This document shows, one piece after another, positions 41,342-64,000 of a stretch of DNA of 64,000 nucleotides. The stretch is from Thermodesulfovibrionia bacterium (GTDB taxonomy: Bacteria > Nitrospirota > Thermodesulfovibrionia > UBA6902), in the NCBI GenBank assembly GCA_947259645.1, contig CAMYND010000009.1:7241-71240 (forward strand), given 5' to 3'. The notes below the pieces were generated by a model, which searched no databases, was not told where the DNA came from, and saw only the letters and a program-made list of their open reading frames with translations. Positions within the stretch are counted from its first letter, which is position 1. The number at the start of each line of letters is the position of its first letter. The position numbers and the translations under genes were made by a program.

Positions 41342-41609
41342 TAAAATTATATTAGATGATCCTGCGCATTACATGCAGTAGCCAAAAAAGCGATTACATA
41401 TTCTGTAAACAGATTTCCTGACTCAGTATAGCTCAATGTCACATATCAAAGCTCAAATGCCAAATGAATGTCAAAATCTTAAGTTTTGATCAGACAAAGA
41501 CTAATAATAACGTGTAACATATGTGCCTGGATCGTACCGGGATGTGACATCTCTAATTCGTGAACAAGCTGGGGGCCACACAACAAATTATGTTGAAGGA
41601 GATAACATT

Positions 41610-44989: not shown

Positions 44990-45469
44990 ATGACTGCATT
45001 GTGCAAGAGTGACTTAATTATGGAGAATAACAATATGCCTAATTCAGATCAAACGTCCAATTCAAACTGGACTATTCTTTTTATATGTTGGCTGATAGCC
45101 AGTATCTCTGCGCTGGGGAGCCTTTTTTTTAGCGAAATAATGAATTTTGCTCCTTGTGTTTTGTGCTGGTATCAGAGAATTTGTTTATTCCCACTGGTTT
45201 TAATTTTATCAATGGGGCTCTTTCACTTTGATAAAAGCGTTGTCAGGTTTGCCCTTCCCTTAGCTTTAATAGGATGGTTTATCGCGTTTTACCACAACCT
45301 TCTTTATTCCGGGATTATTCCAGAAAGCATACAACCCTGCAGTCAGGGTGTTTCATGCACAGAGGACTACATCAACTTGTTTGGCATTTTCACAATTCCT
45401 ATGTTAGCCTTAATATCATTTTCAGCAATAGCAATTTTATTATTTATGTTAAAGAGGAGACTTTCCTAA
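44990..45469 (+). CDS. dsbB: disulfide bond formation protein B (DsbB/BdbC family)
   Basis: Four TM segments. CVLCWYQRI CxxC in the first periplasmic loop and a second Cys pair (CSQGVSC). True start is probably an internal ATG (about 45020-45035). Confidence 0.65.
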   Translation: MTALCKSDLIMENNNMPNSDQTSNSNWTILFICWLIASISALGSLFFSEIMNFAPCVLCWYQRICLFPLVLILSMGLFHFDKSVVRFALPLALIGWFIAFYHNLLYSGIIPESIQPCSQGVSCTEDYINLFGIFTIPMLALISFSAIAILLFMLKRRLS

Positions 45470-46173
45470 TGAAAAAGAAAAAAACAAAGACAAAGCAAAA
45501 ATCAATAGAAAAGCAGAAGCCAGTAAACAAACGAAATATAGTTATCATTTCAGCGATCTGCCTGGCACTTATTTTTGTGCTTGGTAGCTATATCTACAAA
45601 TCCCAGCAAGCCACAAATCTAAGCTTTATGGCTAGAGAAAACGCTTCAACGTTTGTTAGAGAATATTCACAGACGCTCGGCAGTGATGACGCAAAAGTTT
45701 ATATCGTAGAATTTTTCGACCCGGCATGTGAAACCTGTAGAGACTTTTATCCTTTTGTTAAAAAACTCATGGCTGCCAACCCGGGGAAGATTAAACTCGT
45801 TATGAGATATGCCCCTTTTCATGATGGCTCAGATTATGTTGTAAAGATGCTTGAAGCTGCAAGAAAACAGGGAAGGTATTGGGAAACTTTGGAGGTTATG
45901 TATAAGTATCAACCTCACTGGGCAAGTCATCATAAGCCACAGCCTCAAGTATTATGGCAAGTTCTTCCAGAGGCAGGTCTGAATTTAGAACAAATTAAAA
46001 GTGATATGAATAGTCAAGAAATAGCTCAACTGATTAAACAAGACCTTACAGATACTAAAACTCTCAATGTCAGGAAAACGCCTGAGTTTTTCGTAAACGG
46101 GAAACCGCTTCCAAGCTTTGGTTACAACCAATTAAAAGAATTAGTAGAAGCTGAAATTCGGGCAAATTATTAA
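45469..46173 (+). CDS. DsbA-family thiol:disulfide oxidoreductase (BdbD-like), membrane-anchored
   Basis: ATG overlaps the dsbB stop (TAATG). Lys-rich N-terminus plus a TM anchor. Thioredoxin-fold CETC active site (FFDPACETCRDF). Confidence 0.7.
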   Translation: MKKKKTKTKQKSIEKQKPVNKRNIVIISAICLALIFVLGSYIYKSQQATNLSFMARENASTFVREYSQTLGSDDAKVYIVEFFDPACETCRDFYPFVKKLMAANPGKIKLVMRYAPFHDGSDYVVKMLEAARKQGRYWETLEVMYKYQPHWASHHKPQPQVLWQVLPEAGLNLEQIKSDMNSQEIAQLIKQDLTDTKTLNVRKTPEFFVNGKPLPSFGYNQLKELVEAEIRANY

Positions 46174-46361
46174 ATTTAAATTATCAGTAGCAAAAACACA
46201 TAACCAGGCAGTGCTGTGAAATCGAACCAGCGGTATCTTTTTGAGATGTGATTGTTTTATATATTCAAACTGTTTTTTAGCATGTTAATATTCACAAGGG
46301 TTCGATTCACAGACTTCATCGTTCGATCTTAATGAAGACAAAATCAACAAAGGAGACCACC

Positions 46362-46901
46362 ATGAAATTGAAAACAGATGAAGGAGGATGGAACCCGTAT
46401 TTCGCCGGAGCCCTCTTAGGTTTACTGGCGATTATTTCAGTGTTTGCCACAACCAAACTCATGGGCAAAACCAACTACCTAGGTGCATCTACTACCTTCG
46501 TTCGCGCCGCTGGTATTTTAGAGAAAACGGTGGCTGCTGCTCACGTGGGATCAAATGAGTATTTCACTAAAACGAAGGTCGTTGTTGATTGGCAGTTCAT
46601 GCTGGTTATCGGAATTGTTCTCGGCTCCTTTATATCATCTATTTTGGACAAGAGCTTCCAATTGGAGAGTGTCCCTCCTACATGGAAAAGACGATTTGGC
46701 CCCTCGATTAATAAACGAGCAGTGGGCGCCATTGCGGGAGGGATTATCGCTATGATCGGCGCTCGATTGGCTGATGGTTGTCCAAGTGGGCATGGCCTAA
46801 GCGGAATGATGCAATTGTCGGCAAGTTCTTTTGTTGCTTTGGTTATGTTTTTTGCCGTAGGTGCTCTGGTCGCTCGTATAGTTTATGGGAGGATATCATG
46901 A
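46362..46901 (+). CDS. YeeE/YedE family (sulfur/selenium transport, DUF395) half-transporter, part 1
   Basis: RBS AAAGGAGA before ATG 46362. TM segments. Conserved GCPSG motif (ADGCPSGHGLSG). Confidence 0.6.
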   Translation: MKLKTDEGGWNPYFAGALLGLLAIISVFATTKLMGKTNYLGASTTFVRAAGILEKTVAAAHVGSNEYFTKTKVVVDWQFMLVIGIVLGSFISSILDKSFQLESVPPTWKRRFGPSINKRAVGAIAGGIIAMIGARLADGCPSGHGLSGMMQLSASSFVALVMFFAVGALVARIVYGRIS

Positions 46902-47428
46902 ATACAGATCAATGGCTGGGACTTGTAACAGGCGTATTGTTTGGGTTTTTATTACAAAAAGGTCGTGTCCTCCGTTTTGAAAAACAAATCGGGGCACTGT
47001 TGCTAAAGGACATGACGATAGTCAAATTCATGCTGTCAACAATTTTGGTAGGTATGGTCGGAATACTCCTGCTTTCGAGTTTTGAGATTATTACCTTGAG
47101 TCACAAGCCAATGAATCTTGGCGCTGTATTAATAGGAGGAGCTTTCTTCGGTGCAGGATGGGCAATCATGGGTTTTTGCCCAGGCACATCTCTAGGCGCT
47201 TTGGGCGAAGGACGGTGGCATGCCTTGTTTGCCATAATTGGCATGGTGGCAGGGGCAGCACTTTATGCGGAATTGTATCCCTTTTTTAAAACGACAGTAC
47301 TTGCCTGGAAAGACTTCGGTAAGATCGGATTACAGGAAGCTCTGGGTGTCCCATTGTGGGTCATTGTTCCTTGCTTCTGGGCAGGAACAATTTCCTTGTT
47401 TTTATGGATAGAGAGAAAAGGACTCTAA
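46898..47428 (+). CDS. YeeE/YedE family half-transporter, part 2
   Basis: ATGA overlap with part 1. Conserved GFCPGTS motif. Confidence 0.6.
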   Translation: MNTDQWLGLVTGVLFGFLLQKGRVLRFEKQIGALLLKDMTIVKFMLSTILVGMVGILLLSSFEIITLSHKPMNLGAVLIGGAFFGAGWAIMGFCPGTSLGALGEGRWHALFAIIGMVAGAALYAELYPFFKTTVLAWKDFGKIGLQEALGVPLWVIVPCFWAGTISLFLWIERKGL

Positions 47429-47698
47429 TTTTGGAAATATGATCGAACAAGGGCATGCACCGGACGGCTTTTAGCCGCCGGTGATGCCACCCGTTATTTC
47501 AAATGATAATTATCAATTCATCATTCACAACAGTTTATTGACAAGTAAGATAACTGTTTAAATATTATTTTCAAAAAACTGATGATTCACAAATGATATC
47601 CTGACCTTTCGTCCATCCTGTTTAGACTTCTCCGTATTCAAATTCTGCGATAAGATATTTATGCATACCCCTAAGACTGACATATGAGGAGGAGTATC

Positions 47699-48538
47699 AT
47701 GAATATTAAGGAAGCAATAAGCACAATCAGTGACCATCAAAGTGCAAATCTAAAACACCGATCAATATACAGCTACAACTATATATTGAATCGCTTCGAG
47801 TCTCAATTCGGAAATCGTTCAGTAGAATCCATTGGCTCAGATGAGATAGGTCAGTTTTTGGAGAACCTAACAAGTGGTCTCTCCAAGGCTACACGCAGGT
47901 TGAGATTCTCACAGCTGAAGACATTCTTTAACTTTACCATTGATCATTTTGACCTCAACATTAAAAATCCATGTTCTTCATCAAAGATCTCAAGGTCATT
48001 CAAAGCCCCGGTACAGGTGTCGAGAAAGATTCTTGAGAAGGAAACCGTAGATGAGATGATATATAACACAGGCAATGTCCGAGACCGATTGCTCTTGGAA
48101 TTACAAGCACGACGTGGTTTAAGAATTGGTGAATTGTTAAAACTGAGGGTTTCCGATGTGTCAGAAAGGAAACTCACTATTATTGAGCCGAAGTCTCGCA
48201 AGGATTCAGAAGTTGCTTTTATGCCTGAACAGATCGCAAACAGGTTGCACGACTACATTAAAGAGAAACAGCTTTCTCCTGATGAATCGATATTCCCCAT
48301 TTGTTATTCAACAGCCAGGTCAATAATAATTCATCTTGCAAAAAGACTAAATATCAAAATGACCCCTCATGATCTTAGGAGACACTCTGCGACATATGCC
48401 AGTCGAAATGGTGTTCCTTTGGAAATTGTGTCTAAAGTCATTCTCAGGCACCGGGACCTTAAAACAACACAAATCTATCTGGGGAGGGTAAGCGACCCGG
48501 AAGCAATACGCTGGATGGATATATTGCATGGCAAATAG
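47699..48538 (+). mobile_element. tyrosine-type site-specific recombinase/integrase (phage-integrase family) CDS
   Basis: RBS GAGGAGG before ATG 47699. C-terminal HDLRRHSATYASRNGVPLEIVSKVILRHRDLKTTQIYL carries the R...HxxR...Y catalytic residues. Confidence 0.8.
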
Positions 48539-49038: not shown

Positions 49039-49233
49039 AACTTTTTCAGGACTTTCTCCCCCCATTTATTCAACGTAGGAAAAATTAACACGAGCTGTTT
49101 ATACCTGATACCGGCATGTTCCACAACTGAGAACATTGCCTGGCATTGAATCATGCGGCATAAGGGTGATATGTTCATCGGGTTTATCAGCTTGGGACAG
49201 AATAAAATAATCAATAATATAGGAGTCAATTAC

Positions 49234-50409
49234 ATGATGTTAACAAAACAAAAGTTTATTTCCATGATGGCAGGTATATTTATACTTACGCTGTTATCGC
49301 AGTTAGCTTATGGGCATGGAATGTCTGAAGCAGAGAGACAGGCGATTATAGGAGGCGGCAATCTGAGATATCTGTGGATTGGGGCGACCCATATGCTGAC
49401 TGGCTACGATCACTTGATGTTTGTTTTCGGCATTATCTTTTTTCTGACGAACTTCCGTGATATTGTGAAGTATGTGACTGCCTTTACCCTGGGTCACAGT
49501 GTCACGCTGATTTATGCCACTTATAACGGCATACAGTTAAACTATTTTCTGATTGATGCGGTTATTGCCTTGAGTGTGTGCTACATAGCCTTTGCCAATC
49601 TTGACGGCTTCCGCAAATATCTTTCAATCAAACCACCGAACATGATGCTGATGATCATTGGTCTCGGCCTGATTCATGGCTTTGGTTTATCCACCCGGTT
49701 ACAGGCATTGCCATTAAGTGAAGATAGTCTGTTGCTGAATATTATTTCATTTAATGCAGGCATTGAACTAGGGCAGATTTCGGCACTTGCAGCCATGTTG
49801 GTGCTTGTTGCTGTGTGGCGAAAATCTCAGTCATTCGGTACTCACAGCAGGATTGCAAACTATTCGTTGATTATGTTTGGCCTGCTGTTGTTTTTGGTTC
49901 AGACACACGGCTATTCACACAGCAGCCCGTCTGAAGAACTTACTGCCAGTGCTGAACCGTCTCCGGGAATCATTGCTGCTGACGTGGTTGCTTCGACCGG
50001 AATTCCTGAAGAATCTCAACCATCTCAGTGGAAAGATACGATCACCATAACGATTCCTGCCAGAAGTGGCAAGGAGTATAAATTCCATCTCGTGCAGGGT
50101 GCAGTGCTTGATTACTCGTGGAAGACAGACAGCGAAAAGCTGTATTATGATTTTCACGGTGAACCAAAAGGTGATAAAACAGGTTATTTCGAGAGCTTTA
50201 AGACGAATACCGACAACCAGGCAAAAGGTTCTTTAACCGCTACCTTTGAAGGAACTCATGGGTGGTACTGGGAAAACAAGAGTCCATTGCCTGTTAATGT
50301 CGTATTGCAAACCAGAGGCACCTATCAAATGGTAGCTGCAAAGAAGGAGTTAAAAGATGACTCATTAATTGAAACCCCTAATGCTAAAACTCGCGATAGC
50401 ATTTATTAA
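49234..50409 (+). CDS. HupE/UreJ-family Ni/Co transporter-like membrane domain fused to a ~190-aa C-terminal soluble domain of unknown function
   Basis: AGGAG RBS before ATGATG 49234. HGMSEAE...HMLTGYDHLMFVFGIIFF and later GFGLS...ELGQ segments resemble HupE/UreJ. The beta-rich C-terminal half has no recognised motif. Confidence 0.5.
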   Translation: MMLTKQKFISMMAGIFILTLLSQLAYGHGMSEAERQAIIGGGNLRYLWIGATHMLTGYDHLMFVFGIIFFLTNFRDIVKYVTAFTLGHSVTLIYATYNGIQLNYFLIDAVIALSVCYIAFANLDGFRKYLSIKPPNMMLMIIGLGLIHGFGLSTRLQALPLSEDSLLLNIISFNAGIELGQISALAAMLVLVAVWRKSQSFGTHSRIANYSLIMFGLLLFLVQTHGYSHSSPSEELTASAEPSPGIIAADVVASTGIPEESQPSQWKDTITITIPARSGKEYKFHLVQGAVLDYSWKTDSEKLYYDFHGEPKGDKTGYFESFKTNTDNQAKGSLTATFEGTHGWYWENKSPLPVNVVLQTRGTYQMVAAKKELKDDSLIETPNAKTRDSIY

Positions 50410-50426
50410 CTTATGAGGAGGAAAAT

Positions 50427-50768
50427 ATGCGTAGAATCATTACTTGTTTAGTAGTGTTGCTAACCTTTTCTGTAACCGGAGCTTATGCTGGTGCAGGACA
50501 CTCTCATGCCCCAAAGACTAAAATTACTGAGACTCAGGTTCTTTCAAAGGCAACGAGCATCGTTACCGACATTGTACAAAAAGGCAAGTTGGATGCTTCC
50601 TGGGCTGAGATTAAACCAGCTCTAGCTGAAAAGAGAACCTTTAAGAACAGGCCCGAGTGGGTGATTACTTTTAACAATCCCAAGGAAGAGGACAAAGAGA
50701 AGCAGACACTGTATGTATTTCTCAGTTTGTACGGGGATTATCTTGCGGCTAATCATACCGGGAAATAA
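50427..50768 (+). CDS. small periplasmic protein, hypothetical (N-terminal GAGHSHAP His motif)
   Basis: Signal peptide. 113 aa. No recognised family. Confidence 0.35.
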   Translation: MRRIITCLVVLLTFSVTGAYAGAGHSHAPKTKITETQVLSKATSIVTDIVQKGKLDASWAEIKPALAEKRTFKNRPEWVITFNNPKEEDKEKQTLYVFLSLYGDYLAANHTGK

Positions 50769-51214: not shown

Positions 51215-51553
51215 ATGGCGTTAGGCTGGTTTGAAGTTGAAAAGGCACCAAATGGACAATATTATTTTAATTTAAAAGCAGGAAATGCAGAAACGATATT
51301 ATTCAGTGAGCAATATACAACGATGGATGGGTGCAATAATGGGATAGCATCTGTTCAATCTAATAGTGGTGAAGAAGCGAATTACGAACGGAAAGAATCT
51401 AACAAAGGCAAGCCTCATTTTGTTCTAAAGGCTAAGAATCACCAGGTAATCGGCCATAGTGAAAAGTATGAGAGTGCAAGTGGTATGGAAAATGGGATTA
51501 AGTCAGTAATGACTAATGGGTCTACTTCAACCATTAAAGATAAAACTACATAA
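51215..51553 (+). CDS. YegP-like (DUF1508) tandem-repeat protein
   Basis: Two repeats: GWFEVEKAPNGQYYFNLKAGNAETILFSEQYTTMDGCNNGIASV and HFVLKAKNHQVIGHSEKYESASGMENGIKSV. Confidence 0.65.
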   Translation: MALGWFEVEKAPNGQYYFNLKAGNAETILFSEQYTTMDGCNNGIASVQSNSGEEANYERKESNKGKPHFVLKAKNHQVIGHSEKYESASGMENGIKSVMTNGSTSTIKDKTT

Positions 51554-52475: not shown

Positions 52476-54932
52476 TTAAGTCCCCTCTACCTTCACCGTA
52501 TTAATAGGATGCTCTCCATTTGAAGACAGGCGTGTGAGCATGTTTATTCTGGCATGGGGAAAGTGAGTTGGTACGAAGACCGTTCCTTCTGGCACATCGT
52601 CGGAGAGGGCAGCCTTGAGAAATACTGAGCCCTGTCGCGATGAGACCTTAACGTGGCTGTTGTCCGCGATGTCATATTTTTTCGCGTCTTCTTCATTGAT
52701 CTCCAAAAGAGCTTCCGACACAACAAGGTCAAGTGATTTTGAACTGGTAGACATGCTCCCGGAGTGCTGGAGAATATCTCTGATCACGAGTTTAAAGGGG
52801 TATTCTTTGTCTGCTTCTTCTCCCGGCCTGAATTCGACAGGATGAAAAGTTCTCTGAACAGAGACAGGATCCGCAGGACTGCCTGCATCCCCGATTTCTT
52901 CCTTAACAGCAGCGAGATCTCTTATCCCGACATCTTTGCCCATGGAGAGGGCAAGATTTTTCAGGATCATCCAGTCAGGCATGGACTGGCCGGTCGCGTC
53001 AGCAAGTTTATATACTGTCTGGTGAGTGCCTTCAGCGTTAATGAAGGTGCCGTCCTTTTCTGCCCAGCTTGAAGCCGGAAGCACAACATTAGCAAGTTTT
53101 GCTGTCTCGGTCATGAAAATATCCTGTACAACGAGAAAATCCAGGGATTTTAATTTAGCCATCACTTTGGAGCTGTCCGGAAAAGTCGTCACAGGATCCT
53201 CCCCCATAATATAGAGGGCTTTTACGGAGTTGTCCTCATAGAGCATCTTTACAATATCTTTGTCAGATGGTTGCATGGGTCTGACGCCCATATTATAAAG
53301 ACCATAGGTATTTGAGTATTCAGCAGGGACCTGGAGTGAATCAGGCTCGTCGCCGAGAAGATTAATGAGGTTTGCAGCAGCAAGTACTGTATCCAGTCCT
53401 TTTGTGTTTTCTGAAGTACTGACTGAAAGGGATATCATTCTGCTCTTTGCATTGCCAATGGACTCTGCTGCGGCTATAATTTCCTCTTCACTGATCCCTG
53501 TTATTTTTGAGACGTTTTCAGGTGTGTAGTTCTTCAGAGTTGACTGAAGTGACGAGAACTCAGGAATGGCTGATGCAGCGCTCTTATCGTATAAGCCTTT
53601 ATCCAGTATTACCTTTGTTAATCCATTAACAAGCGCAAGGCTTGTTCCGTCCTTGATTTCAAGCCAATCAGTGCTGTGCCGGGTGAGTTTTGTTTCCCGG
53701 GAATCAGCTACTATAAGCTTGCTGCCTGCTCTCATTGCCTCGAGGATGTTAATTCCATATACCGGGTGGGTTACGCTTATATCTGATTCAAGAATCAGAA
53801 TGACCTCTTTCCCTGCGGGAGCGTTAAGGCTTATGGGGTGATTCTTCTGGCCGAATGCTTTTTCCCATACTTTTTGCACTCCGCCATATCCAAAGGCCGC
53901 GGATGAGTCAAGGTTGTTTGTGCCGACCACGTTCTTCATGAATTTCTGAAGCACATAATTGTCTTCATTCGTGCAGCGGGGAGAACCGATCGCGCCTATT
54001 GACGAGGCACTGGAATTTTTTGAGATCTTCTCAAGGTTTTTTGCAACGTAGGAGAGGGCATCTTCCCATGATACGCTTTTAAACTCATCGCCTTCCTTAA
54101 TGAGCGGTGTCTTGAGGCGCTTTTCACTATAGATATAATCAATGCCGAATCTGCCGCGTCCGCAGAGGTTTCCGTCATTTACTCCTGTTCCCTGTTTTCC
54201 TCTGGACCTGAGAATTTTTCCCTCCCTCATGCCGAGATGGAGCGTGCAGCCAACGCCGCAGAAGGGACAGATGGTGCTTTTCTCCTCAAGAAACCATGAG
54301 CGTGAGGTAAATTTGTAGGGTTTGCTCAAGATCGCTCCGGTTGGACAAATATCAAGGCATTGCCCGCAGTAGTCACACTCGAGTATTTCGCCAAAAGCAG
54401 GCTGAACAACCGTTGGGAACCCCCTGCCGATCAGTCCCAGGGCACCTCTTCCCTGATGGTCTCTGCAGATTCGTACGCACTTTCCGCAAAGGATGCAGCG
54501 CCGTGACGTAAGTTCAATTAACGGGCCCCGGATGTCTGATTTCGTCTCTTTTCTGGACCGGATAAACCGTGTGTCAGGTTTGCCGTATTCATAGGCGAGG
54601 TCCTGGAGGTCACATTCCCCAGCCTTGTCACATTCAGGACAGTCAAGGGGATGATGGACCAGGAGGAGTTCTATTACTGTCTGGCGCTGTTTCCTTAATT
54701 TTGGTGTGTCTGTCTGAATGACCATTCCGTCAGCAGCAGGGGAAGAGCATGCTGCAAGAAGACGGGCCTGACCCTCTACTTCAACAATGCAGAGCCTGCA
54801 TCCCCCGTAAGGCCTGAGCCTCTTGTCGTAGCACAAATTCGGGATATAAATATCATTTTGCAAAGCAGCTTCCAGAATGGTGCAACCCTGTTCTGCCTGG
54901 ATTTTCTTGTTGTTTATCGTGAGATTCATCAT
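52476..54932 (-). CDS. molybdopterin-oxidoreductase-fold subunit, FdhA/NuoG-like (N-terminal 2Fe-2S, His-ligated 4Fe-4S, 2x 4Fe-4S and MopB cluster); catalytic Sec/Cys apparently absent
   Basis: CYDKRLRPYGGCRLC (2Fe-2S). HHPLDCPECDKAGECD. CILCGKCVRIC and CDYCGQCLDICP. CPFCGVGC (MopB FS0). C-terminal molybdopterin-dinucleotide-binding-like domain. Where FdhF has GTNNVDCCARV-U-HGPS, this protein has GTNNLDSSAAFGYGGV. Confidence 0.6.
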   Translation of the reverse strand: MMNLTINNKKIQAEQGCTILEAALQNDIYIPNLCYDKRLRPYGGCRLCIVEVEGQARLLAACSSPAADGMVIQTDTPKLRKQRQTVIELLLVHHPLDCPECDKAGECDLQDLAYEYGKPDTRFIRSRKETKSDIRGPLIELTSRRCILCGKCVRICRDHQGRGALGLIGRGFPTVVQPAFGEILECDYCGQCLDICPTGAILSKPYKFTSRSWFLEEKSTICPFCGVGCTLHLGMREGKILRSRGKQGTGVNDGNLCGRGRFGIDYIYSEKRLKTPLIKEGDEFKSVSWEDALSYVAKNLEKISKNSSASSIGAIGSPRCTNEDNYVLQKFMKNVVGTNNLDSSAAFGYGGVQKVWEKAFGQKNHPISLNAPAGKEVILILESDISVTHPVYGINILEAMRAGSKLIVADSRETKLTRHSTDWLEIKDGTSLALVNGLTKVILDKGLYDKSAASAIPEFSSLQSTLKNYTPENVSKITGISEEEIIAAAESIGNAKSRMISLSVSTSENTKGLDTVLAAANLINLLGDEPDSLQVPAEYSNTYGLYNMGVRPMQPSDKDIVKMLYEDNSVKALYIMGEDPVTTFPDSSKVMAKLKSLDFLVVQDIFMTETAKLANVVLPASSWAEKDGTFINAEGTHQTVYKLADATGQSMPDWMILKNLALSMGKDVGIRDLAAVKEEIGDAGSPADPVSVQRTFHPVEFRPGEEADKEYPFKLVIRDILQHSGSMSTSSKSLDLVVSEALLEINEEDAKKYDIADNSHVKVSSRQGSVFLKAALSDDVPEGTVFVPTHFPHARINMLTRLSSNGEHPINTVKVEGT

Positions 54933-56782
54933 TATTTGTCACCTCCCTCTTTAACTGCCGAGACAGGTTTTTCTTTCCGGATGGCCGGCTTTACCTCAAT
55001 TGAGGCGAATTTGCAGGTGTCATAGCATGACCTGCACTGTATGCACAGTTCCTGAATGATCCTGTGGGCCTTTTTCTTTTCTCCGACGATGGCTTCCTGC
55101 GGACATGCCCGCAGGCAGGCACCGCATCCCTTGCACAGTTCTTCGGAAATATGAAATGAGCAGAGGTCGCTGCATATTCCTGCTTCACACCAATGATCTT
55201 TAATGTGTGCTTCATATTCATGTTTGAAATATCGTATCGTGGAAAGGACGGGATTCGGGGCTGTCTGGCCGAGTCCGCAAAGAGATGTACTGATAATGTC
55301 CCTGCTCAGGTCTTCAAGCTTTTCAATATCGCCTTCCTGTCCTCTGCCCTCTGTTATGTCGGTGAGCATATCGAGCATTACTCTTGTTCCGACGCGGCAG
55401 GGGGTGCATTTCCCGCATGATTCATCGGCGGTAAACTCAAGAAAAAACTTTGCCGTGCTCACCATGCAAGTGTCTTCGTCCATTACTACCATTCCTCCTG
55501 AACCCATGATAGCACCGGTCTTGACAATGTCTTCGTAGGTTACGGGGATGTCGATATGGTCCTCGGGGATACAGCCTCCTGAGGGGCCGCCCATTTGCAC
55601 GGACTTGAACTTTTTCTTTTTGTTTGTCATCCCGCCACCGATATCATAGATAATCGTTTTCAGAGGGGTTCCCATGGGGACTTCGACGAGCCCGACGTTT
55701 TTTATATCCCCTGTAAGGGCAAATACCTTTGTGCCGGTACTCTTTTCAGTCCCCAGTGACTTGTACCATTCAGCCCCGTTCAGGATGGTTGGGGCTATCT
55801 GTGCCAGGGTCTCAACGTTGTTCAGGACTGATGGCTTGTCCCACAGGCCCTTATGGGCAGGGAAGGGAGGACGTGGTCTTGGCATACCGCGCTTTCCTTC
55901 AATGGAACGCATCAGCGCTGTTTCTTCACCGCATACAAATGCCCCTGCACCCAGGTATATTTCAAGGTCAAAGTTAAATCCGCTTCCCAAAATGTTTTCA
56001 CCAAGAAGACCATTCTCACGACAAAGCTTAATCGCTGTTTCAAGCCTCGCTACTGCCAGCGGATACTCGGCTCTGACGTAGATTACGCCTTTGCTCGCGC
56101 CTATCGCCTTTGCGCCGATTAACATGCCTTCGATTACTGAGTGGGGATCAGATTCCATAACAGACCTGTCCATGAATGCCCCGGGGTCACCTTCGTCACC
56201 GTTGCACAGCATGAACTTCTGGTCAGCTACTGACTTTGAGGCGAACTCCCACTTTAACCCTGTCGGGAAACCTGCTCCTCCCCGTCCCCTGATTCCTGCG
56301 TCTTTAATAGTCTGTATTATATCTTCCGGGGTCATTTCCGTTAAGGCCTTACCAGCAGCCATATACCCGTCTCGTGCGATGTACTCATCCAGGCTGTCAG
56401 GATCAATGAGCCCCTTATTCCTCAGGACCCTCAATACCTGGTGCTTGAAGAACGGGATATCATTCATTAATGGAATGGCTGCCCTCTTCTCAGGGTCCTT
56501 GAACATCAGTTTTTCATAGGGCCGGCCTTTCAGGAAGTGCTCTTCAACAAGTTTCGGGACTTCCGCGACAGTCAATTTCTGATAAAAGATCTCTTCAGGG
56601 TACACCAGCATTACAGGCCCTTCAGCACAGAATCCGTTGCATCCGGTCAGCACGATCTTTACCTCGTCGGCAAGGCCCTGCTTTTCCAGCTCTTCCTGAA
56701 GGGCATCTTTAACCTTGGGGGTCCCGCTTGCAACGCATCCGGTCCCGGCACACATGAGTAAATTGGCACGATATTTTTCCAT
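54932..56782 (-). CDS. NuoF/HndC-like NAD(P)H-binding flavoprotein subunit with N-terminal thioredoxin-like 2Fe-2S domain and C-terminal 2x[4Fe-4S] ferredoxin domain
   Basis: GRGGAGFPTGLKWEF (FMN/NADH site). ESCGKCTPCRVGT (N3 cluster). CKGCGACLRACP and CIQCRSCYDTC ferredoxin motifs. N-terminal CAGTGC...C. Confidence 0.8.
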   Translation of the reverse strand: MEKYRANLLMCAGTGCVASGTPKVKDALQEELEKQGLADEVKIVLTGCNGFCAEGPVMLVYPEEIFYQKLTVAEVPKLVEEHFLKGRPYEKLMFKDPEKRAAIPLMNDIPFFKHQVLRVLRNKGLIDPDSLDEYIARDGYMAAGKALTEMTPEDIIQTIKDAGIRGRGGAGFPTGLKWEFASKSVADQKFMLCNGDEGDPGAFMDRSVMESDPHSVIEGMLIGAKAIGASKGVIYVRAEYPLAVARLETAIKLCRENGLLGENILGSGFNFDLEIYLGAGAFVCGEETALMRSIEGKRGMPRPRPPFPAHKGLWDKPSVLNNVETLAQIAPTILNGAEWYKSLGTEKSTGTKVFALTGDIKNVGLVEVPMGTPLKTIIYDIGGGMTNKKKKFKSVQMGGPSGGCIPEDHIDIPVTYEDIVKTGAIMGSGGMVVMDEDTCMVSTAKFFLEFTADESCGKCTPCRVGTRVMLDMLTDITEGRGQEGDIEKLEDLSRDIISTSLCGLGQTAPNPVLSTIRYFKHEYEAHIKDHWCEAGICSDLCSFHISEELCKGCGACLRACPQEAIVGEKKKAHRIIQELCIQCRSCYDTCKFASIEVKPAIRKEKPVSAVKEGGDK

Positions 56783-56913
56783 ATCTTTTCCCTCTATCTA
56801 TAAAGTAGTATTCTGATCCTCTGTTTTCTGAAAAATATCAATCTCCTGAATGTAATCAGGATAATAAACGTTGTGTATTGTTTTTGTCTTTACGCTGACA
56901 GCTGAAAGCTGAA

Positions 56914-57297
56914 TTAATACGTTGTCTCACTCCCCATCACGAGGGCATATTTCTCTACAGGTGTGCCGCCGAGGACATGATCCTTAAAGATCTCCTTCAG
57001 TTTATCAACGGTAACATCGCCATATTTTACCGGTGTGTTATCAGCTATTTCCACGGTCATCATCGGTTCACGGGCACAGAGTCCGGCGCAGCCTGAGGTG
57101 GTGGTAATAACATCATTAACTTTAGATTCTGTGATTTCATCTATCAGGGCTGTCATGATATCCCGCGCTCCCGCTGCTATTCCGCAGGTTCCCATATGAA
57201 CGGTAACTTTTGCCCTGTATCCGCCTTCTCTCAGGTTGAATGTTGCCTGCTGTTTTTCTTTTATTTTCTTTAAATCAGCGATCGTTAACTTTGCCAT
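56914..57297 (-). CDS. HndB-like small thioredoxin-fold [2Fe-2S] ferredoxin
   Basis: 127 aa. HMGTCGIAAGA...SGCAGLCAREP Cys pattern matches the NuoE/HndB-type 2Fe-2S fold. Confidence 0.55.
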   Translation of the reverse strand: MAKLTIADLKKIKEKQQATFNLREGGYRAKVTVHMGTCGIAAGARDIMTALIDEITESKVNDVITTTSGCAGLCAREPMMTVEIADNTPVKYGDVTVDKLKEIFKDHVLGGTPVEKYALVMGSETTY

Positions 57298-57381
57298 TTG
57301 AGTCCTCCTGTTATTGCTGTGCCCGTTGTTTCAGTTACTAAAACGTGCATGAATCAGTAACACAGATTGCCGAACCTTTTA

Positions 57382-58254
57382 TCATGCGTATTCTTCCAGA
57401 ACACCCTGAACCTTTTTTGGTGTCATTGCACCGTATGTTTCTTCATCCACGACAATAACAGGCGCAAGACCGCATGCCCCGAGGCACCGTACTGTTTCGA
57501 TAGAGAATTTTTTGTCTTCCGTAACCTCTCCAACATCTATTTTGAGCGTTGATTTGAATTTTTCCAGTACTTCCTCTACTCTCTTTACGTAGCACGCTGT
57601 GCCGAGACATACCCTGACATTATGGTCCCCTCTGGGTTTCATGGTGAAATAGGAATAAAATGTCACGATACTGTGAATTTCTGCCGGAGACATATTGAGC
57701 CCCTTCGCGACCCGTTTCTGCACAACAGGGGGCAAATATCCGACGATTGCCTGACAGCGCTGGAGAACAGGGATTGAACTTCCCGGCTTGTTCCTGTACT
57801 CCTTTATGACCCGGTCAATCTCCTGTCTCATGGACGGGGGAAATTCTTCCTCTTTTTTCTCTTCTTCAACAGCAGCCTTGCCCTTTATCCACTGCACTGA
57901 CCGTTCTGTTACGTCCAGAAGCACTGCCGGGGTAAAGGGTTTCGGCACATAATCGATTATTCCGGCTTCAAGGGCATCTTTAATCGTATCCTGTGACGGG
58001 TACCCCGTGATGACAACGATACCGGTGTCAGGCCTGTTCTGCCTGATCCACTTAATAAGGGTGATACCATCTACTTCAGGCATCTTAAGGTCAGTGAATA
58101 CGAGGTCATAGGGGGTCTGCTCCATCTTCAGTATCGCCTCTTTGCCTCCCAGAACTCCTTCGATATTGTACCCTTCGGACCTGAGTACCGATTCGCAGCT
58201 TCTGATAATGACGGGCTCATCGTCAACAACCAGAATTTTAATATCATCTGCCAT
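57382..58254 (-). CDS. response-regulator receiver domain fused to NuoE/HndA-like [2Fe-2S] subunit
   Basis: N-terminal CheY-like domain (ILVVDDEPVII...DLVFTDLKMPEVDG...KPF). C-terminal NuoE signature (IPVLQRCQAIVGYLPP...VCLGTACYVKRVEEV...VRCLGACGLAPV). Confidence 0.75.
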   Translation of the reverse strand: MADDIKILVVDDEPVIIRSCESVLRSEGYNIEGVLGGKEAILKMEQTPYDLVFTDLKMPEVDGITLIKWIRQNRPDTGIVVITGYPSQDTIKDALEAGIIDYVPKPFTPAVLLDVTERSVQWIKGKAAVEEEKKEEEFPPSMRQEIDRVIKEYRNKPGSSIPVLQRCQAIVGYLPPVVQKRVAKGLNMSPAEIHSIVTFYSYFTMKPRGDHNVRVCLGTACYVKRVEEVLEKFKSTLKIDVGEVTEDKKFSIETVRCLGACGLAPVIVVDEETYGAMTPKKVQGVLEEYA

Positions 58255-58426
58255 AAGAAGCCTCCATTGCGCTGTTTATAGGTGGACGTTTAAATGAAAA
58301 GGCAGGCTTTACACGTATTGAGAAACACCCGGGACAATTATGTGCATGGACCTGTTTATTCATATTTGCTGTTCAGTGTACCTGTTACCAATTTCTGTCT
58401 TATCCTTCGATCTGAGAGACAAAACC

Positions 58427-59191
58427 CTATTTTGCTAAGGGGAATACTTTTGCCAGCCAAAGAAGCCATCCTTCTGATAGATGGTCCTTAAGAAGTGCTG
58501 CCATGACGTCATTCGCCTTCGTATTGATCTCTCTGAGCTCTCCATTCATGGGAGAAAGCAGGCTTTGTGATTTGCCGCTGCTTGTATAAATATTCGCAAA
58601 AACCTGACCCGCATCAAGGGTATCCAGATCTTTAACAAACTCTACATACATTAAATCTCCTGCAAGCATCCAGTATCTCAGGTCACAGCCGACTTCCCAC
58701 AGTCCGTCGCCGGAGGGTCGTGCCCAGGTGCCTTCTTTATAAAAAATAACAGGGTTTTCCTGGTCCCGCAGGGGTGATACAAAGTCCCTGAAATCGTCAA
58801 TAAAGGCCTGCCGCAATATCCAGCCCCGGGTGTCAAAAACCTTCTGGGCGACATTAAGCATAAAGTCAGGGGTAAAGGGTTTTTCAATGTATTCCGCTGC
58901 TCCCAGTTTTGACGATTCCTTGGCATCTTCCAGAGTCGGGTAACCCGTAATTATCACTACGTCTGTTTTCGGCTTGATGACACGGGCTTCCTTAAGCACT
59001 TCTAGCCCGCTCATTCCCGGCATTTTCACATCGGATATCAGGAGGTCAAAATCTTCTTTTGAGAGTTTATTGAGGGCATCTTCTCCGTTATCTACCGTGG
59101 AAATGCTGTAACCTTCAGCTCCGAGAATTCTCTTGCAGCTTAAGGTTACAATTGGATCATCATCGACTACTAGTATTCTCCCTTTTTCCAT
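58427..59191 (-). CDS. response-regulator receiver domain fused to a GcvH-like (lipoyl/biotinyl-type hybrid barrel) domain
   Basis: N-terminal CheY-like domain (ILVVDDDPIV...DLLISDVKMPGMSG...KPF). The C-terminal about 120 aa aligns by eye with glycine-cleavage H protein (FYKEGTW...GLWEVGCD...AGDLMYVEF...YTSSGKSQSLLSPMNGELREIN...EGWLLWLA), including a Lys at the lipoyl-Lys position. Confidence 0.5.
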   Translation of the reverse strand: MEKGRILVVDDDPIVTLSCKRILGAEGYSISTVDNGEDALNKLSKEDFDLLISDVKMPGMSGLEVLKEARVIKPKTDVVIITGYPTLEDAKESSKLGAAEYIEKPFTPDFMLNVAQKVFDTRGWILRQAFIDDFRDFVSPLRDQENPVIFYKEGTWARPSGDGLWEVGCDLRYWMLAGDLMYVEFVKDLDTLDAGQVFANIYTSSGKSQSLLSPMNGELREINTKANDVMAALLKDHLSEGWLLWLAKVFPLAK

Positions 59192-59295
59192 TACGCCCCC
59201 TCCTGGCTGTTATGACTCTCCGATTACATCAGACTGGTGCACCCATAACCGGACAGCCTTTAATTGGGTCTATAGTATCATATTATTTCTATAAT

Positions 59296-59820
59296 TTAGC
59301 CAGCACTTATAGCGTCTTTAATAATTTTTATTACGTCCGGCGTATTAATCGGGATATTGCCCAGCTCTTTTTTTATTTCAGATGTATCTAAAACGTATGT
59401 TTTATCATCTCTTTTGTGTTCGAAGAAAAAATCAATTTCAGGATTAGATACTATCAGAACGATCAGTGTTTTTCCAACATCTCCCATGGGTTTCCTGTCT
59501 ATGTGGTCATGCTGAAAAGATACGGATATGGAGGTGCCCCCGCCTTTTTGAGAGGTCACCTGTATGTCCCCCCTGCACTCCCGTGCAGCCTGGGCGAGCA
59601 TCGGGATGCCAAGCCCCACTTTTCTCGTCGTCCTTGTAGTGTAAAAGGGATCGCAGGCATGTTCCAGCAGTTCCGCGTCCATCCCCTGTCCGTTGTCTTT
59701 AATGTCTATAGTCAGGATATTGTCTTTGACACTTTCCCTCAGCCTGATCTCAATTCTGGACGCCCCCGCTGTTATCGAGTTTTCAACAATATCAAGGATA
59801 TGTAATGATAGATCTTCCAT
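59296..59820 (-). CDS. GHKL-type ATPase domain protein (histidine-kinase-like / anti-sigma-factor-like Ser kinase), no HisKA or sensor domain
   Basis: N-box region ILDIVENSITAG. G1 DNGQGM. G2 GLGIPM. C-terminal about 70 aa of unknown function. Confidence 0.6.
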   Translation of the reverse strand: MEDLSLHILDIVENSITAGASRIEIRLRESVKDNILTIDIKDNGQGMDAELLEHACDPFYTTRTTRKVGLGIPMLAQAARECRGDIQVTSQKGGGTSISVSFQHDHIDRKPMGDVGKTLIVLIVSNPEIDFFFEHKRDDKTYVLDTSEIKKELGNIPINTPDVIKIIKDAISAG

Positions 59821-59934
59821 AATTGTGATTTATCTTGCCACAGACTTGCACAGACTTAAAGACATGATACTATCTCTATTACTGTTTAGTGCTTAACCTG
59901 CTTTTGTCTGTGTTAGTCAGTGGCTGAATAATCT

Positions 59935-60675
59935 TCACTCCCATTCCACCTTTCTTCCATCTTTGTTTTTCATTGCCATTCTTATCTCTGTAATTGACGG
60001 GGCCTGCAGGGAGAAATTTGAAATTTTTTTTGCAATGTCTGCCGGATAGTGGGCGTCAGAGGACGCTATCCAGGTATATGAGCTGTAGTCTTTGAACAGG
60101 CTCTCAGCCTTTTCCCTTGTCATATTCGGGGACATTTCAAGGGCGTCAAAGTTCATCTGATCCGGGATAAATCCCAGCTGCGACAGTATACTGAAGGCCC
60201 CCCTGTCAATATGTGAGGCTATGGCCAGACCGCCCAGATCGTGGATGGTCTCTATTATTGTTTGAGCAGGCAGATCAGTGGCGGCTATGAGCATCCGATT
60301 GTTCATGCCTAACACTTCATCCTGTTCATTGACAATTACCTGCTCCCCGAATCTGCTTACATCATTGGTCCCGGGAAGAAGGTTTTTATATACAATTTCC
60401 TGTAGATCTAAAATACGATCGTCATCAAAGATCCCCAGGATATGTGCTTCTTCTGAAGATGCTACCTCCATACCGGCAAGAACAGTAAGGTTGAACTGCG
60501 CTGCGGATTTTCTTGCTGCCTGCACATTTTCAGCAGAATTGTGGTCAGTAATAGCGATGATATCCAGACCCTTTTGTGAAGCGGTCTCAATAATTGAAGC
60601 AGGGGTCATATCCAGTTCAGCGCAGGGGGAAAGGCAGGTATGTATATGCAGGTCAGCTTTATATTGTTTCAACAT
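59935..60675 (-). CDS. PHP-domain metal-dependent phosphoesterase
   Basis: DLHIHTCLSPCA and IIAITDHNS His motifs of the PHP superfamily. Confidence 0.7.
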   Translation of the reverse strand: MLKQYKADLHIHTCLSPCAELDMTPASIIETASQKGLDIIAITDHNSAENVQAARKSAAQFNLTVLAGMEVASSEEAHILGIFDDDRILDLQEIVYKNLLPGTNDVSRFGEQVIVNEQDEVLGMNNRMLIAATDLPAQTIIETIHDLGGLAIASHIDRGAFSILSQLGFIPDQMNFDALEMSPNMTREKAESLFKDYSSYTWIASSDAHYPADIAKKISNFSLQAPSITEIRMAMKNKDGRKVEWE

Positions 60676-60708
60676 AAGAGGTTTTCAGGATTCTGTTCAG
60701 CAGCTCTT

Positions 60709-61044
60709 TTACCTGTCAAGCAGTTGATAAAGCTTTCCTGCTGCTTCAAATGCCGGCAGGGGTGTTGTCATGACAGTTACTTTTTCGGCCCGGGCCTTCT
60801 CTATGACGTCTTCCGCCGGTTTTCTGTTTCCCACAATAATTATTCCGGCCAGGCCTTTCATATCAGCTACAGCGATAATATTCAGGTGAGTCTGAAGCGT
60901 AATCCATATATTCCCTACATTGCTGTTGGCCATAACATCAGACAGGAGATCACTGACATATGCTCCCGTGACTTCATTATTCATGCTTTCTTCACAGGTT
61001 ACTATTTCCAGCGACAAGTCTTTGATCAGATCCTGAAGATTCAT
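60709..61044 (-). CDS. DRTGG-domain protein
   Basis: About 110 aa with a core resembling the DRTGG domain (IAVADMKGLAGIIIVGN...). Confidence 0.5.
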   Translation of the reverse strand: MNLQDLIKDLSLEIVTCEESMNNEVTGAYVSDLLSDVMANSNVGNIWITLQTHLNIIAVADMKGLAGIIIVGNRKPAEDVIEKARAEKVTVMTTPLPAFEAAGKLYQLLDR

Positions 61045-61085
61045 AACATGACCCCTTTTGTAGTATTTCTCAGTATGAAATATGT

Positions 61086-61523
61086 CTACGGGATATTTAA
61101 AACCATCTCCACTGTCGTGCCTTCGCCCACAACAGACTCAATATTAAATTCATCTGAGTTCTTTTTCATGTTCGGGAGCCCCATTCCTGCTCCCCAGCCC
61201 ATTTCCCGCACCCACTCGGGAGCGGTCGAGTACCCCTCCTGCATTGCCTGCTCGATATTTTCAATGCCGGGCCCCATGTCTTCAATCCTGATCCGGATGG
61301 AAGACGGGCCAATAAAGTACAGCAGTCGTGCTGCTGCCGCGTATATAATTACATTGATTTCCGCTTCAAAGGTGGCGATAGCGGCACGCCGTATGATTTC
61401 TTCAGCAACACCGAGATCAGTGAGCGTCCGTTTCAGCTCGCCAGAGGCCTCACCGGCAGTGGCAAAGTTTCCGCCTACGAGCTGAAAGCTGCCTTCTATT
61501 GTTTTGTCACTATTCAGTGGCAT
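61086..61523 (-). CDS. GHKL-type ATPase, anti-sigma-factor/RsbW-like Ser kinase
   Basis: EAEINVIIYA N-box-like. DMGPGI (G1). GAGMGL (G2). About 145 aa, like SpoIIAB/RsbW. Confidence 0.6.
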   Translation of the reverse strand: MPLNSDKTIEGSFQLVGGNFATAGEASGELKRTLTDLGVAEEIIRRAAIATFEAEINVIIYAAAARLLYFIGPSSIRIRIEDMGPGIENIEQAMQEGYSTAPEWVREMGWGAGMGLPNMKKNSDEFNIESVVGEGTTVEMVLNIP

Positions 61524-61527
61524 CTGC

Positions 61528-61878
61528 TTACTTGTCCAGACATCCCGGTAACCCCTCTTTAAACAGCCTTCCTGAGGCGGTGTACATGCAGAAGGATGTG
61601 CTTAACAGGGGGATTTTTTTCTTTTGAGCCAGGTCGATAGTTTCTTTGTCCGGCTTCTTATCCAGGACAAAAACAATGGATTTGATCCCCGCTATTTCAG
61701 CGGTACGGATAACATGAGGCTGGGTGAGGCTGGTGATAAGCAGTGAGTTGGGTGTGTGGTAATACAGGACAGCGCTCATCATATCAGCACTGCAGGCGCT
61801 GTGAATATCTATCTCTGAATTCTCAGGATTTGCGATGATAGATGCTTCAAGAATTTTAGCTATCTCTTTTAAAATCAT
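61528..61878 (-). CDS. DRTGG-domain protein (second copy)
   Basis: About 116 aa paralogous to 60709-61044 (LITSLTQPHVIRTAEIAGIKSIVFV). Its stop overlaps the downstream GHKL gene. Confidence 0.5.
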   Translation of the reverse strand: MILKEIAKILEASIIANPENSEIDIHSACSADMMSAVLYYHTPNSLLITSLTQPHVIRTAEIAGIKSIVFVLDKKPDKETIDLAQKKKIPLLSTSFCMYTASGRLFKEGLPGCLDK

Positions 61879-61901: not shown

Positions 61902-62267
61902 TTAGTCCGATGGTCCGAATACTTCCTGAACCGCTTTAAGCAGCGTGTCGGGTGTAAAAGGCTTTTCTATAAAGTTATATGCACCGACTCTCAGCGCCTG
62001 AACAGCCGTATCAACTGTGCTGTAGCCTGTTACCATAACAACTTTCGTCTCCGGCCAGTTCTCCTTTATTTTGCTGAGCACCTCCATGCCGTCCATGTCC
62101 GGCATTTTCAGGTCAAGCAGAACCAGTGCGAAGGTTTCCTTTTCAAGGCACGCTATCCCTTCTTTGCCGCTGGCCGTGAGCGTCACATCATATCCTTCCG
62201 GGGTCAGGGTCCTGTCGCAGCTTGTCCTGACTATGGCTTCATCATCTACTACGAGAATTTTTTTCAT
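61902..62267 (-). CDS. single-domain response regulator (CheY-like receiver)
   Basis: ILVVDDEAIV...LVLLDLKMPDMDG...KPF. Start overlaps the upstream kinase stop (ATGA). Confidence 0.8.
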   Translation of the reverse strand: MKKILVVDDEAIVRTSCDRTLTPEGYDVTLTASGKEGIACLEKETFALVLLDLKMPDMDGMEVLSKIKENWPETKVVMVTGYSTVDTAVQALRVGAYNFIEKPFTPDTLLKAVQEVFGPSD

Positions 62268-63850: not shown

Positions 63851-64000
63851 ATCCGTGTATTATAGGTGCGTTTTTGTTTTTTTAAAAGAATTAAATAATA
63901 AAATTTCAGTTATTTATAAATGTTCATTTTGCAATGTAGCATTCTCAAAATTGCCGGTAAGCATAATTCCGGGGTATTGCTGATAAATAAGTTAAAACTA

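Follow-up and report, generated by a model that had tools for sequence, protein, structure and literature searches.

Does a formate dehydrogenase-like protein that has lost the residues of its active site still serve a redox enzyme, and if so, which one? This question is raised by a stretch of 64,000 nucleotides (the window) from a Thermodesulfovibrionia bacterium (GenBank assembly GCA_947259645.1, contig CAMYND010000009.1). At positions 52476..54932 of the minus strand, the window encodes a NuoG-like subunit of 818 amino acids, here called BfuA, as the last of 12 co-directional, closely spaced genes. Databases label members of the BfuA family variously as 'formate dehydrogenase alpha subunit', 'NADH-quinone oxidoreductase chain G', or 'molybdopterin-dependent oxidoreductase'. 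A reading of the letters without database searches (the sequence-only reading) had proposed that BfuA lacks the catalytic selenocysteine (Sec)/Cys-His pair of formate dehydrogenases (FDHs) and that its operon is left without an obvious catalytic partner. The pair is indeed absent. As for the partner, the favored answer, to which a probability of about one half is given, is that BfuA belongs to a detached NADH-input module (N-module) of the bifurcating Bfu type, which would provide complex I with a second, ferredoxin-linked, and separately regulated input.

Loss of the formate dehydrogenase active site

The BfuA open reading frame (ORF) consists of 818 codons and has no internal stops. Pfam recognizes the domains Fer2_4, NADH-G_4Fe-4S_3, Fer4_Nqo3, Molybdop_Fe4S4, Molybdopterin (186 bits, full length), and Molydop_binding. 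By motif, the protein carries an N-terminal [2Fe-2S] cluster (C34, C45, C48, C62), a His-ligated [4Fe-4S] cluster (H93/H94, C98, C101, C107), a ferredoxin domain with two [4Fe-4S] clusters (C146, C149, C152, C156 and C186, C189, C192, C196), and a MopB-type [4Fe-4S] cluster (C222, C225, C229, C257). The ligands of this one [2Fe-2S] and these four [4Fe-4S] clusters are invariant (21/21) across 45 homologues. The second of the two ferredoxin-domain clusters is retained in BfuA but absent from E. coli NuoG; in the FDH subunit FdsA, it wires the chain to the active-site-proximal cluster. In an AlphaFold2 model, the predicted local distance difference test (pLDDT) score is 80-95 in the MopB part and 25-60 in the N-terminal Fe-S region, as expected without clusters, so only the MopB part was used. 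Foldseek places NAD-dependent FDHs and FdhH on top, with a template modeling score (TM-score) of 0.78 to FdhH, and complex I NuoG chains lower. Pfam, Foldseek, and the invariant ligands agree on a four-domain MopB fold with its proximal [4Fe-4S] cluster, and they bear out the earlier description of an Fe-S prelude like that of FdsA or NuoG in front of this fold.

The loop that once held the molybdenum (Mo) ligand comprises residues 337-353 of BfuA (GTNNLDSSAAFGYGGVQ; 53874..53924, minus strand). Three independent alignments place it in the same register. HMMER against the solved FdsA chains 9wxb_B and 6tg9_A sets 'GTNNLDSSAAFGYGGV' of BfuA opposite 'GTNNTDTCARVCHSPT'. When FdhF from the E. coli K-12 genome is aligned by MAFFT, its GTNNVDCCARVUHGPS falls opposite the loop, and a MAFFT alignment of 153 sequences puts G348 and Y349 of BfuA in the columns of FdhF U140 and H141. 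Gly348 and Tyr349 are encoded by GGA and TAT and there is no in-frame TGA, which excludes a TGA-encoded Sec at the catalytic position. The remaining catalytic residues are replaced as well. FdhF Arg333 (PVRGQNNVQG) becomes Ala537 (VPAEYSNTYG) within residues 533-545 (LQVPAEYSNTYGL; 53298..53336, minus strand), where Tyr539 and Tyr543 occupy the positions of FdhF Gln335 and Gln339. FdhF Lys44 (LCLKG), located between the proximal [4Fe-4S] cluster and the pterin, becomes Arg259 within residues 256-263 (LCGRGRFG; 54144..54167, minus strand), a motif that opens with the fourth Cys of the MopB cluster; E. coli NuoG has the same replacement (LCDRGRFG). BfuA thus has none of the four residues that mark an Fdh-alpha protein, i.e., the Sec/Cys ligand, His141, Arg333, and Lys44. 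The by-eye placement of Gly and Tyr at Sec140 and His141 is upheld, with no Cys or Sec found at the catalytic position, and the loss extends to the catalytic Arg and Lys.

The sequence-only reading had also suspected that the subunit is cofactor-less. No residue-level catalogue of the contacts between FdhF and the molybdopterin guanine dinucleotide (MGD) cofactor was found in the literature, and FDH-conserved columns were used instead. Among 21 representatives with Cys/Sec-His, Arg, and Lys, 99 such columns show conservation of at least 90%; BfuA keeps 56 of them and E. coli NuoG 34. The suspicion is likely right, but the sequence gives mixed signs: the columns lost in BfuA cluster at the metal/pterin center (C136, R138, U140, H141, N176, H302, R333-Q339, R460, R581, K679), whereas several motifs of the nucleotide-binding domain (GEDP, VVQDIF, LPASSWAEKDG) are kept. 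The kept motifs count against the loss of the cofactor, as does the GTP-like ligand found at the corresponding site of M. smegmatis NuoG (PMC10068793). On the other side, the solved homologues StnC and NfnA contain an inactive FdhF/NuoG-like domain with dead-end clusters and no pterin (PMC10482914, PMC11829005). At the level of sequence, the MopB domain of BfuA is catalytically dead and cannot oxidize formate by the known mechanism, and it likely lacks the pterin cofactor.

Not every enzyme of this fold holds its metal through a protein ligand; arsenite oxidase does not. BfuA could by this precedent be a functional Mo or tungsten (W) bis-pyranopterin guanine dinucleotide enzyme acting on formate or another substrate, which would suit the full four-domain fold, its high model confidence and its TM-score to FdhH, the invariant proximal and bridging clusters, and the strong conservation both of the replaced motifs and of several nucleotide-binding ones. 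Such an enzyme is nevertheless highly improbable. Four catalytic and electron-transfer residues are replaced, and R581, K679, H302, Q335, and N176 are lost on the pterin side. The same losses extend across the surrounding clade of at least 43 clusters, relatives encoded at the nuoG position share the site type, and the solved homologous domains hold no pterin.

The replaced residues are a property of the whole family. From a search of 5.8 billion proteins, the best 120 matches were examined; they are 63-84% identical to BfuA and, where named, come from Nitrospirota/Thermodesulfovibrionia. All 120 carry D-S-S-x-x-[FL]-G-[YH] (e.g., DSSAAFGY), with Gly throughout at the position of FdhF Sec140. 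A scan of one genome per species matched 299 loci, and the best 80 were analyzed for context. BfuA is 59-79% identical in these 80, nearly all of which are labeled Nitrospirota or Thermodesulfovibrionia, with two Deferribacteres. LCGRGRFG is found in 86/86 family copies in the 80 loci and xPAEY[SA]NTxG in nearly all, the family consensus at the Arg333 region being LQIPAEY(S/A)NT(Y/F)G. In a search of 1.8 billion cluster representatives, scores drop from 934 bits (50% identity) to ~650 bits (41%). Of the top 150 representatives, the majority are without the FDH triad, and a true FDH first appears among the matches at 36% identity. A neighbor-joining tree of 152 representatives, which is rough and has no support values, places the BfuA family inside the clade of at least 43 clusters, all without Cys/Sec-His and Arg. 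The window gene is thus not peculiar in its loss, which is old and shared.

BfuA is a NuoG-type subunit, functionally and structurally. It scores 467.4 bits against the Fdh-alpha model TIGR01591, below the cutoff of 666.25, which together with the missing catalytic residues supports the earlier view of a NuoG-like, non-FDH subunit. Against the NuoG model TIGR01973, it scores 456.3 bits and narrowly misses the cutoff of 470.05; the genuine NuoG of a related locus (L041) scores 494.7 bits. BfuA has the N1b, N5 (His-ligated), and N4 motifs of NuoG and a C-terminal MopB-like domain without Mo ligands, though its gene lies in an operon of its own and not between nuoF and nuoH. The loop at its His-ligated cluster reads HPLDCPxC, with Pro as in complex I NuoG; at this position of the dimer interface, NAD-dependent FDHs have a conserved Leu (Radon et al. 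2020, PMC7171172). A dead Fdh/NuoG-like domain is in itself ordinary, being already known from NuoG, StnC, and NfnA. The lost FDH site is expected for NuoG-type proteins, and its chief use is as a guard against mis-annotation.

The Bfu-type core and its probable redox partner

The 12 genes encode, in order, a histidine kinase, a receiver (REC) protein, DRTGG, HATPase_c_2, DRTGG, PHP, and HATPase_c proteins, a REC-GcvH-like protein, a REC-NuoE fusion (BfuC), an HndB-like protein, a long NuoF (BfuB), and BfuA. BfuB (616 amino acids; 54932..56782, minus strand) was assigned by Pfam and phmmer, and its stop codon overlaps the BfuA start codon by one base. It is composed of an N-terminal thioredoxin-like [2Fe-2S] domain, a flavin mononucleotide (FMN)/NADH site, an N3-type [4Fe-4S] cluster, and two C-terminal [4Fe-4S] clusters, the architecture by which Schut et al. 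2022 define the Bfu family (PMC9304861). Residues 3-595 align with residues 3-594 of HydB from the A. mobile NiFe-HydABCSL enzyme (7t2r_B) at 824 bits and ~65% identity, and other solved bifurcating HydB/NfnB/StnB chains score 690-803 bits. The alignment is full-length to six solved bifurcating B subunits, and the Cys motifs all match those of 7t2r_B. Canonical NuoF chains score 310-395 bits against BfuB and cover only residues ~127-530. By these alignments, the NuoF-like protein of the window classes as Bfu (bifurcating) type.

The other subunits fit the same family, BfuA through the invariant ligands of its cluster chain. BfuC (290 amino acids; 57382..58254, minus strand) joins a REC domain (Response_reg, 102 bits) to a NuoE-type [2Fe-2S] domain (2Fe-2S_thioredx, 166 bits, full length). 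Its receiver part retains the signature residues D11/D12, D55, T83, and K105, and fused REC-NuoE proteins of 287-332 amino acids are found in most family loci. The HndB-like protein (127 amino acids; 56914..57297, minus strand) is a small thioredoxin-like [2Fe-2S] protein with a weak 2Fe-2S_thioredx match in Pfam, and its gene is kept in 47 loci.

No further redox partner for this core is encoded in cis. Among 40 window ORFs scanned with Pfam (some smaller ORFs were left unscanned), there is no hydrogenase, FDH catalytic, Hdr, or Nfn-like gene, and no hydrogenase or FDH catalytic gene is found in any of the 80 related loci. The GltD/NfnB-like NADPH domain that marks Stn/NfnABC enzymes is absent by Pfam from the 818-residue BfuA and from the rest of the operon. 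Downstream of BfuA, five loci of the window's operon type (class I) have unrelated, variable genes, such as those for a glycosyltransferase, LysR, an AAA ATPase, and a tRNA synthetase. A homologue of 1405 amino acids (P0121) was considered as a partner-revealing fusion and rejected; it is only a head-to-tail BfuA-BfuA fusion. The sequence-only reading was right that no hydrogenase or FDH catalytic gene is adjacent. Its further suggestion of an operon without an obvious partner holds in cis only, as the partner is probably not missing: relatives and outgroups indicate complex I.

The first indication is synteny. In the 80 loci, ORFs were called and clustered, and cluster representatives were annotated. 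The core of REC-NuoE, HndB, BfuB, and BfuA is conserved across family loci, and in 19 of the 25 loci that show the kinase gene together with its upstream DNA, nuoA/nuoB is divergent from that gene. An identical 12-gene operon faces nuoA-B-C-D-E-F-G-H-I-J-K-L in L094 (complete genome CP070632.1) and in L095, the BfuA of the latter being 79% identical to that of the window. In L041, bfuC-B-A is followed by nuoA-B-C-D-E-F-G-H on the same strand. The end of the window (position 64000) lies 150 bp upstream of the kinase gene. A NuoA protein (P0354) and the window's BfuA (P0001) are both found on NCBI contigs of 139,827 nt, and because of this match, the one direct hint, a divergent nuoA-N operon probably begins within a few hundred bases of the window's end.

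The second indication comes from outside the family. All four BfuA outgroup representatives with a readable multi-gene context occupy the nuoG position in nuo operons that encode a long NuoF of the Bfu type. L084 (41% identity) has nuoE, nuoF (639 amino acids), nuoG-like, and nuoA-B-CD-H-I-J-K-L-M-N, with no other EFG genes. L091/L092 (40% identity) has nuoA-B-C-D, DRTGG, HATPase_c_2, DRTGG, PHP, HATPase_c, nuoE, hndB, nuoF::gltD, nuoG-like, and nuoH-N, and both L093 and L090 have a BfuB-type gene, nuoG-like, and nuoH. The outgroup representatives P0126, P0127, and P0128 are orphan NuoG-like genes, and the contig of P0122 is too short for context. Outgroup B subunits are 62-66% identical to the family BfuB versus 43-48% to canonical NuoF. 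The HndB homologue of L091 (128 amino acids), encoded between nuoE and nuoF, is 57% identical to the window HndB, and the NuoE of the outgroup nuo operons (L084, L091) has no REC domain. Since the L091 nuo operon has the same gene block in the same order, the nine-gene block at window positions 52476-61878 is the gene-by-gene homologue of the input-module block in another lineage's complex I operon. The metagenomic nuo operons of L091 (764-20294) and L092 encode a NuoF of 1016 amino acids fused to a GltD-like pyridine-nucleotide domain, which suggests that this type of complex I might also handle NADPH.

The synteny of relatives and the outgroups within nuo operons make complex I the most likely partner, and the HPLDCPxC loop, which is NuoG-like and not FDH-like, lends small support. 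In the favored reading, REC-BfuC, HndB, BfuB, and BfuA would form a four-protein flavin/Fe-S module. The BfuB/BfuC core would handle NAD(H) at the FMN and ferredoxin at the C-terminal clusters of BfuB. BfuA would act as the electron wire, with the His-ligated cluster at the junction, linking the core to the NuoI/NuoB/NuoCD chain, and its dead FDH-like domain, like those of NuoG, StnC, and NfnA, would provide a scaffold and a surface for docking. The third redox partner, encoded outside the operon, would be the quinone-reducing, proton-pumping part of complex I (NuoABCDHIJKLMN), onto which we infer that the module docks. Electrons would thus enter from ferredoxin plus NADH, in the manner of a 'Nuo-Bfu' complex, beside the canonical NuoEFG. 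Production of the module would be under a heme-c sensor kinase, and its activity might, speculatively, be controlled through phosphorylation of the BfuC receiver domain.

Several observations weigh against this reading. The nuo operon facing the L094/L095 operon has a canonical NuoE (154 amino acids), NuoF (~420), and NuoG (~855); the neighboring NuoF passes TIGR01959 and the NuoG passes TIGR01973, and the window BfuA shares 34-36% identity with genuine NuoG proteins from related genomes (34% with that of L094). With canonical NuoEFG already in the neighboring operon, complex I does not need the Bfu module, and the adjacency may reflect shared regulation only. In one complete genome (CP070788.1), nuoE-hndB-bfuB-bfuA is found alone, with no regulators or nuo genes nearby. 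To our knowledge, no Nuo-Bfu complex has been purified so far. Finally, 16 of the 80 loci, all with paralogous copies, have NfnA-like and GltD/NfnB-like genes directly upstream of REC-nuoE and do not adjoin nuo (L024, L027, L030, L031, L033, L039, L060-L062, L065, L067, L070, L071, L073, L076, and L079). The NfnA-like protein is sulfide/dihydroorotate dehydrogenase-like (PRK06222, 413 bits), and the GltD/NfnB-like protein scores above the cutoff of TIGR01316 (566 bits). In this branch at least, the genes indicate a soluble enzyme linked to NADPH.

If shared regulation were all that joins the two operons, the module could pass electrons to another acceptor, either a small redox protein or a membrane complex such as an 11-subunit Nuo-like one, or it could be a redox sensor for the attached signaling proteins. 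This possibility draws on the lack of a cis partner in any of the 80 loci and on the richness of the operon in signaling genes (three REC domains, two HATPase proteins, PHP, and two DRTGG proteins). Moreover, Bfu proteins include 17 clades without an assignable function (Schut et al., PMC9304861), and Thermodesulfovibrio genomes encode 11-subunit complexes without NuoEFG (PMC5165239). It is, however, unlikely. The signaling block is itself found inside the L091 nuo operon, and the ~65% identity of the BfuB core to A. mobile HydB is as expected of a working enzyme.

The Nfn-containing paralogues bring up a different possibility, namely a soluble enzyme of the Bfu type with a third-substrate module encoded at another locus, most plausibly as an NfnAB/GltD-like pair. 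The enzyme would then be a split version of the Stn/NfnABC NADH-ferredoxin-NADP transhydrogenase, and the dead domain would function in oligomerization only. Besides the 16 loci, the solved StnC and NfnA are in keeping with it, as they have a GltD-like domain fused to the BfuA part and their inactive FdhF-like domain makes tetramer contacts; the GltD fusion in the L091 NuoF is a further point in its favor. Against this, class I operons never contain Nfn-like genes, no such gene was seen in the Pfam scan of 40 window ORFs, and the nearest outgroups sit in nuo operons. Five genomes have a separate Nfn-containing paralogue in addition to a class I operon, which suggests that the two have different roles. 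For the window's module, the soluble enzyme is possible but not likely. Nfn-type paralogous operons often carry a LuxR-type two-component pair. Tandem BfuB-BfuA-BfuB-BfuA genes are found in five loci (L027, L031, L033, L045, and L061), as duplications behind a single REC-NuoE/HndB pair and NfnAB-like genes.

The complex I reading can be taken one step further, to a doubtful but consequential version. One complex I membrane arm would accept two interchangeable inputs, NuoEFG for NADH only and BfuCBA-HndB for NADH plus ferredoxin, the latter confurcating or running in reverse. The choice between them would be post-translational, with the heme-c kinase phosphorylating the receiver domain of the gating subunit BfuC, with help from the DRTGG, HATPase, and PHP proteins. 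If true, this would be a two-component system that acts directly on a respiratory enzyme rather than on transcription.

Regulatory genes of the operon and other genes of the window

The sensor histidine kinase is encoded by the first gene of the operon (62264-63850, minus strand), and its counterparts in L094/L095 have HAMP, HisKA, and HATPase_c domains. Between two hydrophobic segments, in a predicted outer loop, it has the heme-c motifs CTGCH (near residue 119) and CSTAACH (near residue 162), and the CxxCH and Cx4CH motifs are present in 28/28 kinase orthologues. From these motifs, the kinase looks like a periplasmic heme-c redox sensor. The second gene encodes a stand-alone receiver protein (61902-62267, minus strand), and operons of the window type have no DNA-binding response regulator.

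These are followed by a five-gene accessory block (59296..61878, minus strand), identified by Pfam and conserved in family loci. It is composed of DRTGG (61528-61878), HATPase_c_2 (61086-61523), a second DRTGG (60709-61044), PHP (59935-60675), and HATPase_c (59296-59820), all on the minus strand. Directly upstream of BfuC, in a conserved position, Pfam finds a REC domain fused to a GcvH-like domain (254 amino acids; 58427..59191, minus strand). Two unusual REC fusions thus adjoin, REC-NuoE at 57382-58254 and REC-GcvH-like at 58427-59191. A role for the latter as a lipoyl-type electron acceptor was considered and rejected, as the lipoyl-lysine position is not conserved in its 45 orthologues. 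A promoter-like site, by consensus match only, lies upstream of the kinase gene (63886-63859), and scanning for terminators turned up none that was convincing on the minus strand beyond the BfuA gene.

Immediately past the operon's downstream end, genes of the other strand encode a HupE/UreJ-family membrane protein with a long C-terminal extension and DUF6488 and DUF1508 proteins (49153-50768 and 51215-51553, plus strand), which have no evident link to the BfuA module. Farther away, positions 45274-48538 (plus strand) encode a DsbA-like thioredoxin-fold protein, a YeeE/YedE-type sulfur-transport protein, and a phage-type integrase (47684-48538). The YeeE/YedE-type gene appears split into overlapping ORFs (46332-46901 and 46778-47428), and the region may be a mobile-element edge or contain a frameshift. 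A 495-amino-acid protein with rhodanese domains and multiheme cytochrome c554/c7-type domains is encoded at 41523-43010 (plus strand).

Comparison with known systems

BfuA resembles NuoG/Nqo3/NDUFS1 in its domain order, including N7, in its MopB fold without Mo ligands, and in the LC.RGRFG and HPLDCPxC motifs. Unlike NuoG, it has as partners a long NuoF of the Bfu type, an HndB protein, and a NuoE with a fused REC domain. This combination recalls the Nuo-Bfu complexes predicted by Schut et al. 2022 for BfuB clades 38 and 39, the latter of which includes Nitrospirae (PMC9304861). There, as here, a Bfu-type E/F/G module is tied to nuo membrane genes, and the closest outgroups of BfuA are arranged in exactly this way. 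The difference is that bfuABC in the predicted complexes replaces nuoEFG within a single operon, whereas the window module has its own operon beside canonical nuoEFG.

Among solved structures, StnC of Sporomusa ovata StnABC (8OH5) and NfnA of Caldicellulosiruptor NfnABC (9BOV) share with BfuA the inactive FdhF/NuoG-like domain in the 'A' subunit of a Bfu enzyme, and 9bov_A matches BfuA residues 95-651 with E = 3e-91. Both differ in having a fused GltD-like NADPH domain, a real third-substrate site that BfuA does not have. The best matches in sequence and fold (387 bits; Foldseek E = 1e-54) are to FdsABG(D), represented by the Rhodobacter capsulatus enzyme (6TGA) and Methylorubrum FDH1, with the same five Fe-S clusters in FdsA. 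In FdsA, however, Cys386, His387, Arg587, and the Lys are present and Mo-bisMGD is bound; FdsB lacks the C-terminal ferredoxin-binding clusters, FdsD is absent from the window, and the interface Leu is Pro in BfuA.

The bifurcating hydrogenases HydABC, NiFe-HydABCSL, and Hnd (HndABCD) have the same BfuB/BfuC core and an HndB-like fourth subunit, but the window module has neither an H-cluster domain nor NiFe subunits and carries the dead MopB domain instead. Kinase-like accessory genes accompany hydABC operons in Firmicutes. A detachable, separately encoded input module is also known from the archaeal F420H2 dehydrogenase (Fpo), whose FpoF subunit can serve another donor as well. FpoF belongs to an unrelated family, uses F420 as its substrate, and is not known to be controlled by a two-component system.

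Dead Fdh/NuoG-like domains and Nuo-Bfu operons are already in the literature, the latter as a prediction only. No description of a detached Bfu module beside nuo was found in the literature on NuoEFG in Thermodesulfovibrio/Nitrospirae or on Bfu/Nfn enzymes in Thermodesulfovibrionia. What appears to be new is the arrangement, which is widespread in Thermodesulfovibrionia: a detached Bfu module with a REC-fused BfuC and a heme-c kinase next to a canonical nuo operon of 14 genes. With ~300 genome matches in Nitrospirota, it is a concrete and widespread case in which one complex I locus combines a ferredoxin-linked Bfu module with a canonical module for NADH. The Nuo-Bfu hypothesis of a ferredoxin-dependent complex I is thereby made approachable in sulfate-reducing Nitrospirota, and the fusion of a REC domain to a core redox subunit offers a handle on the regulation of such enzymes.

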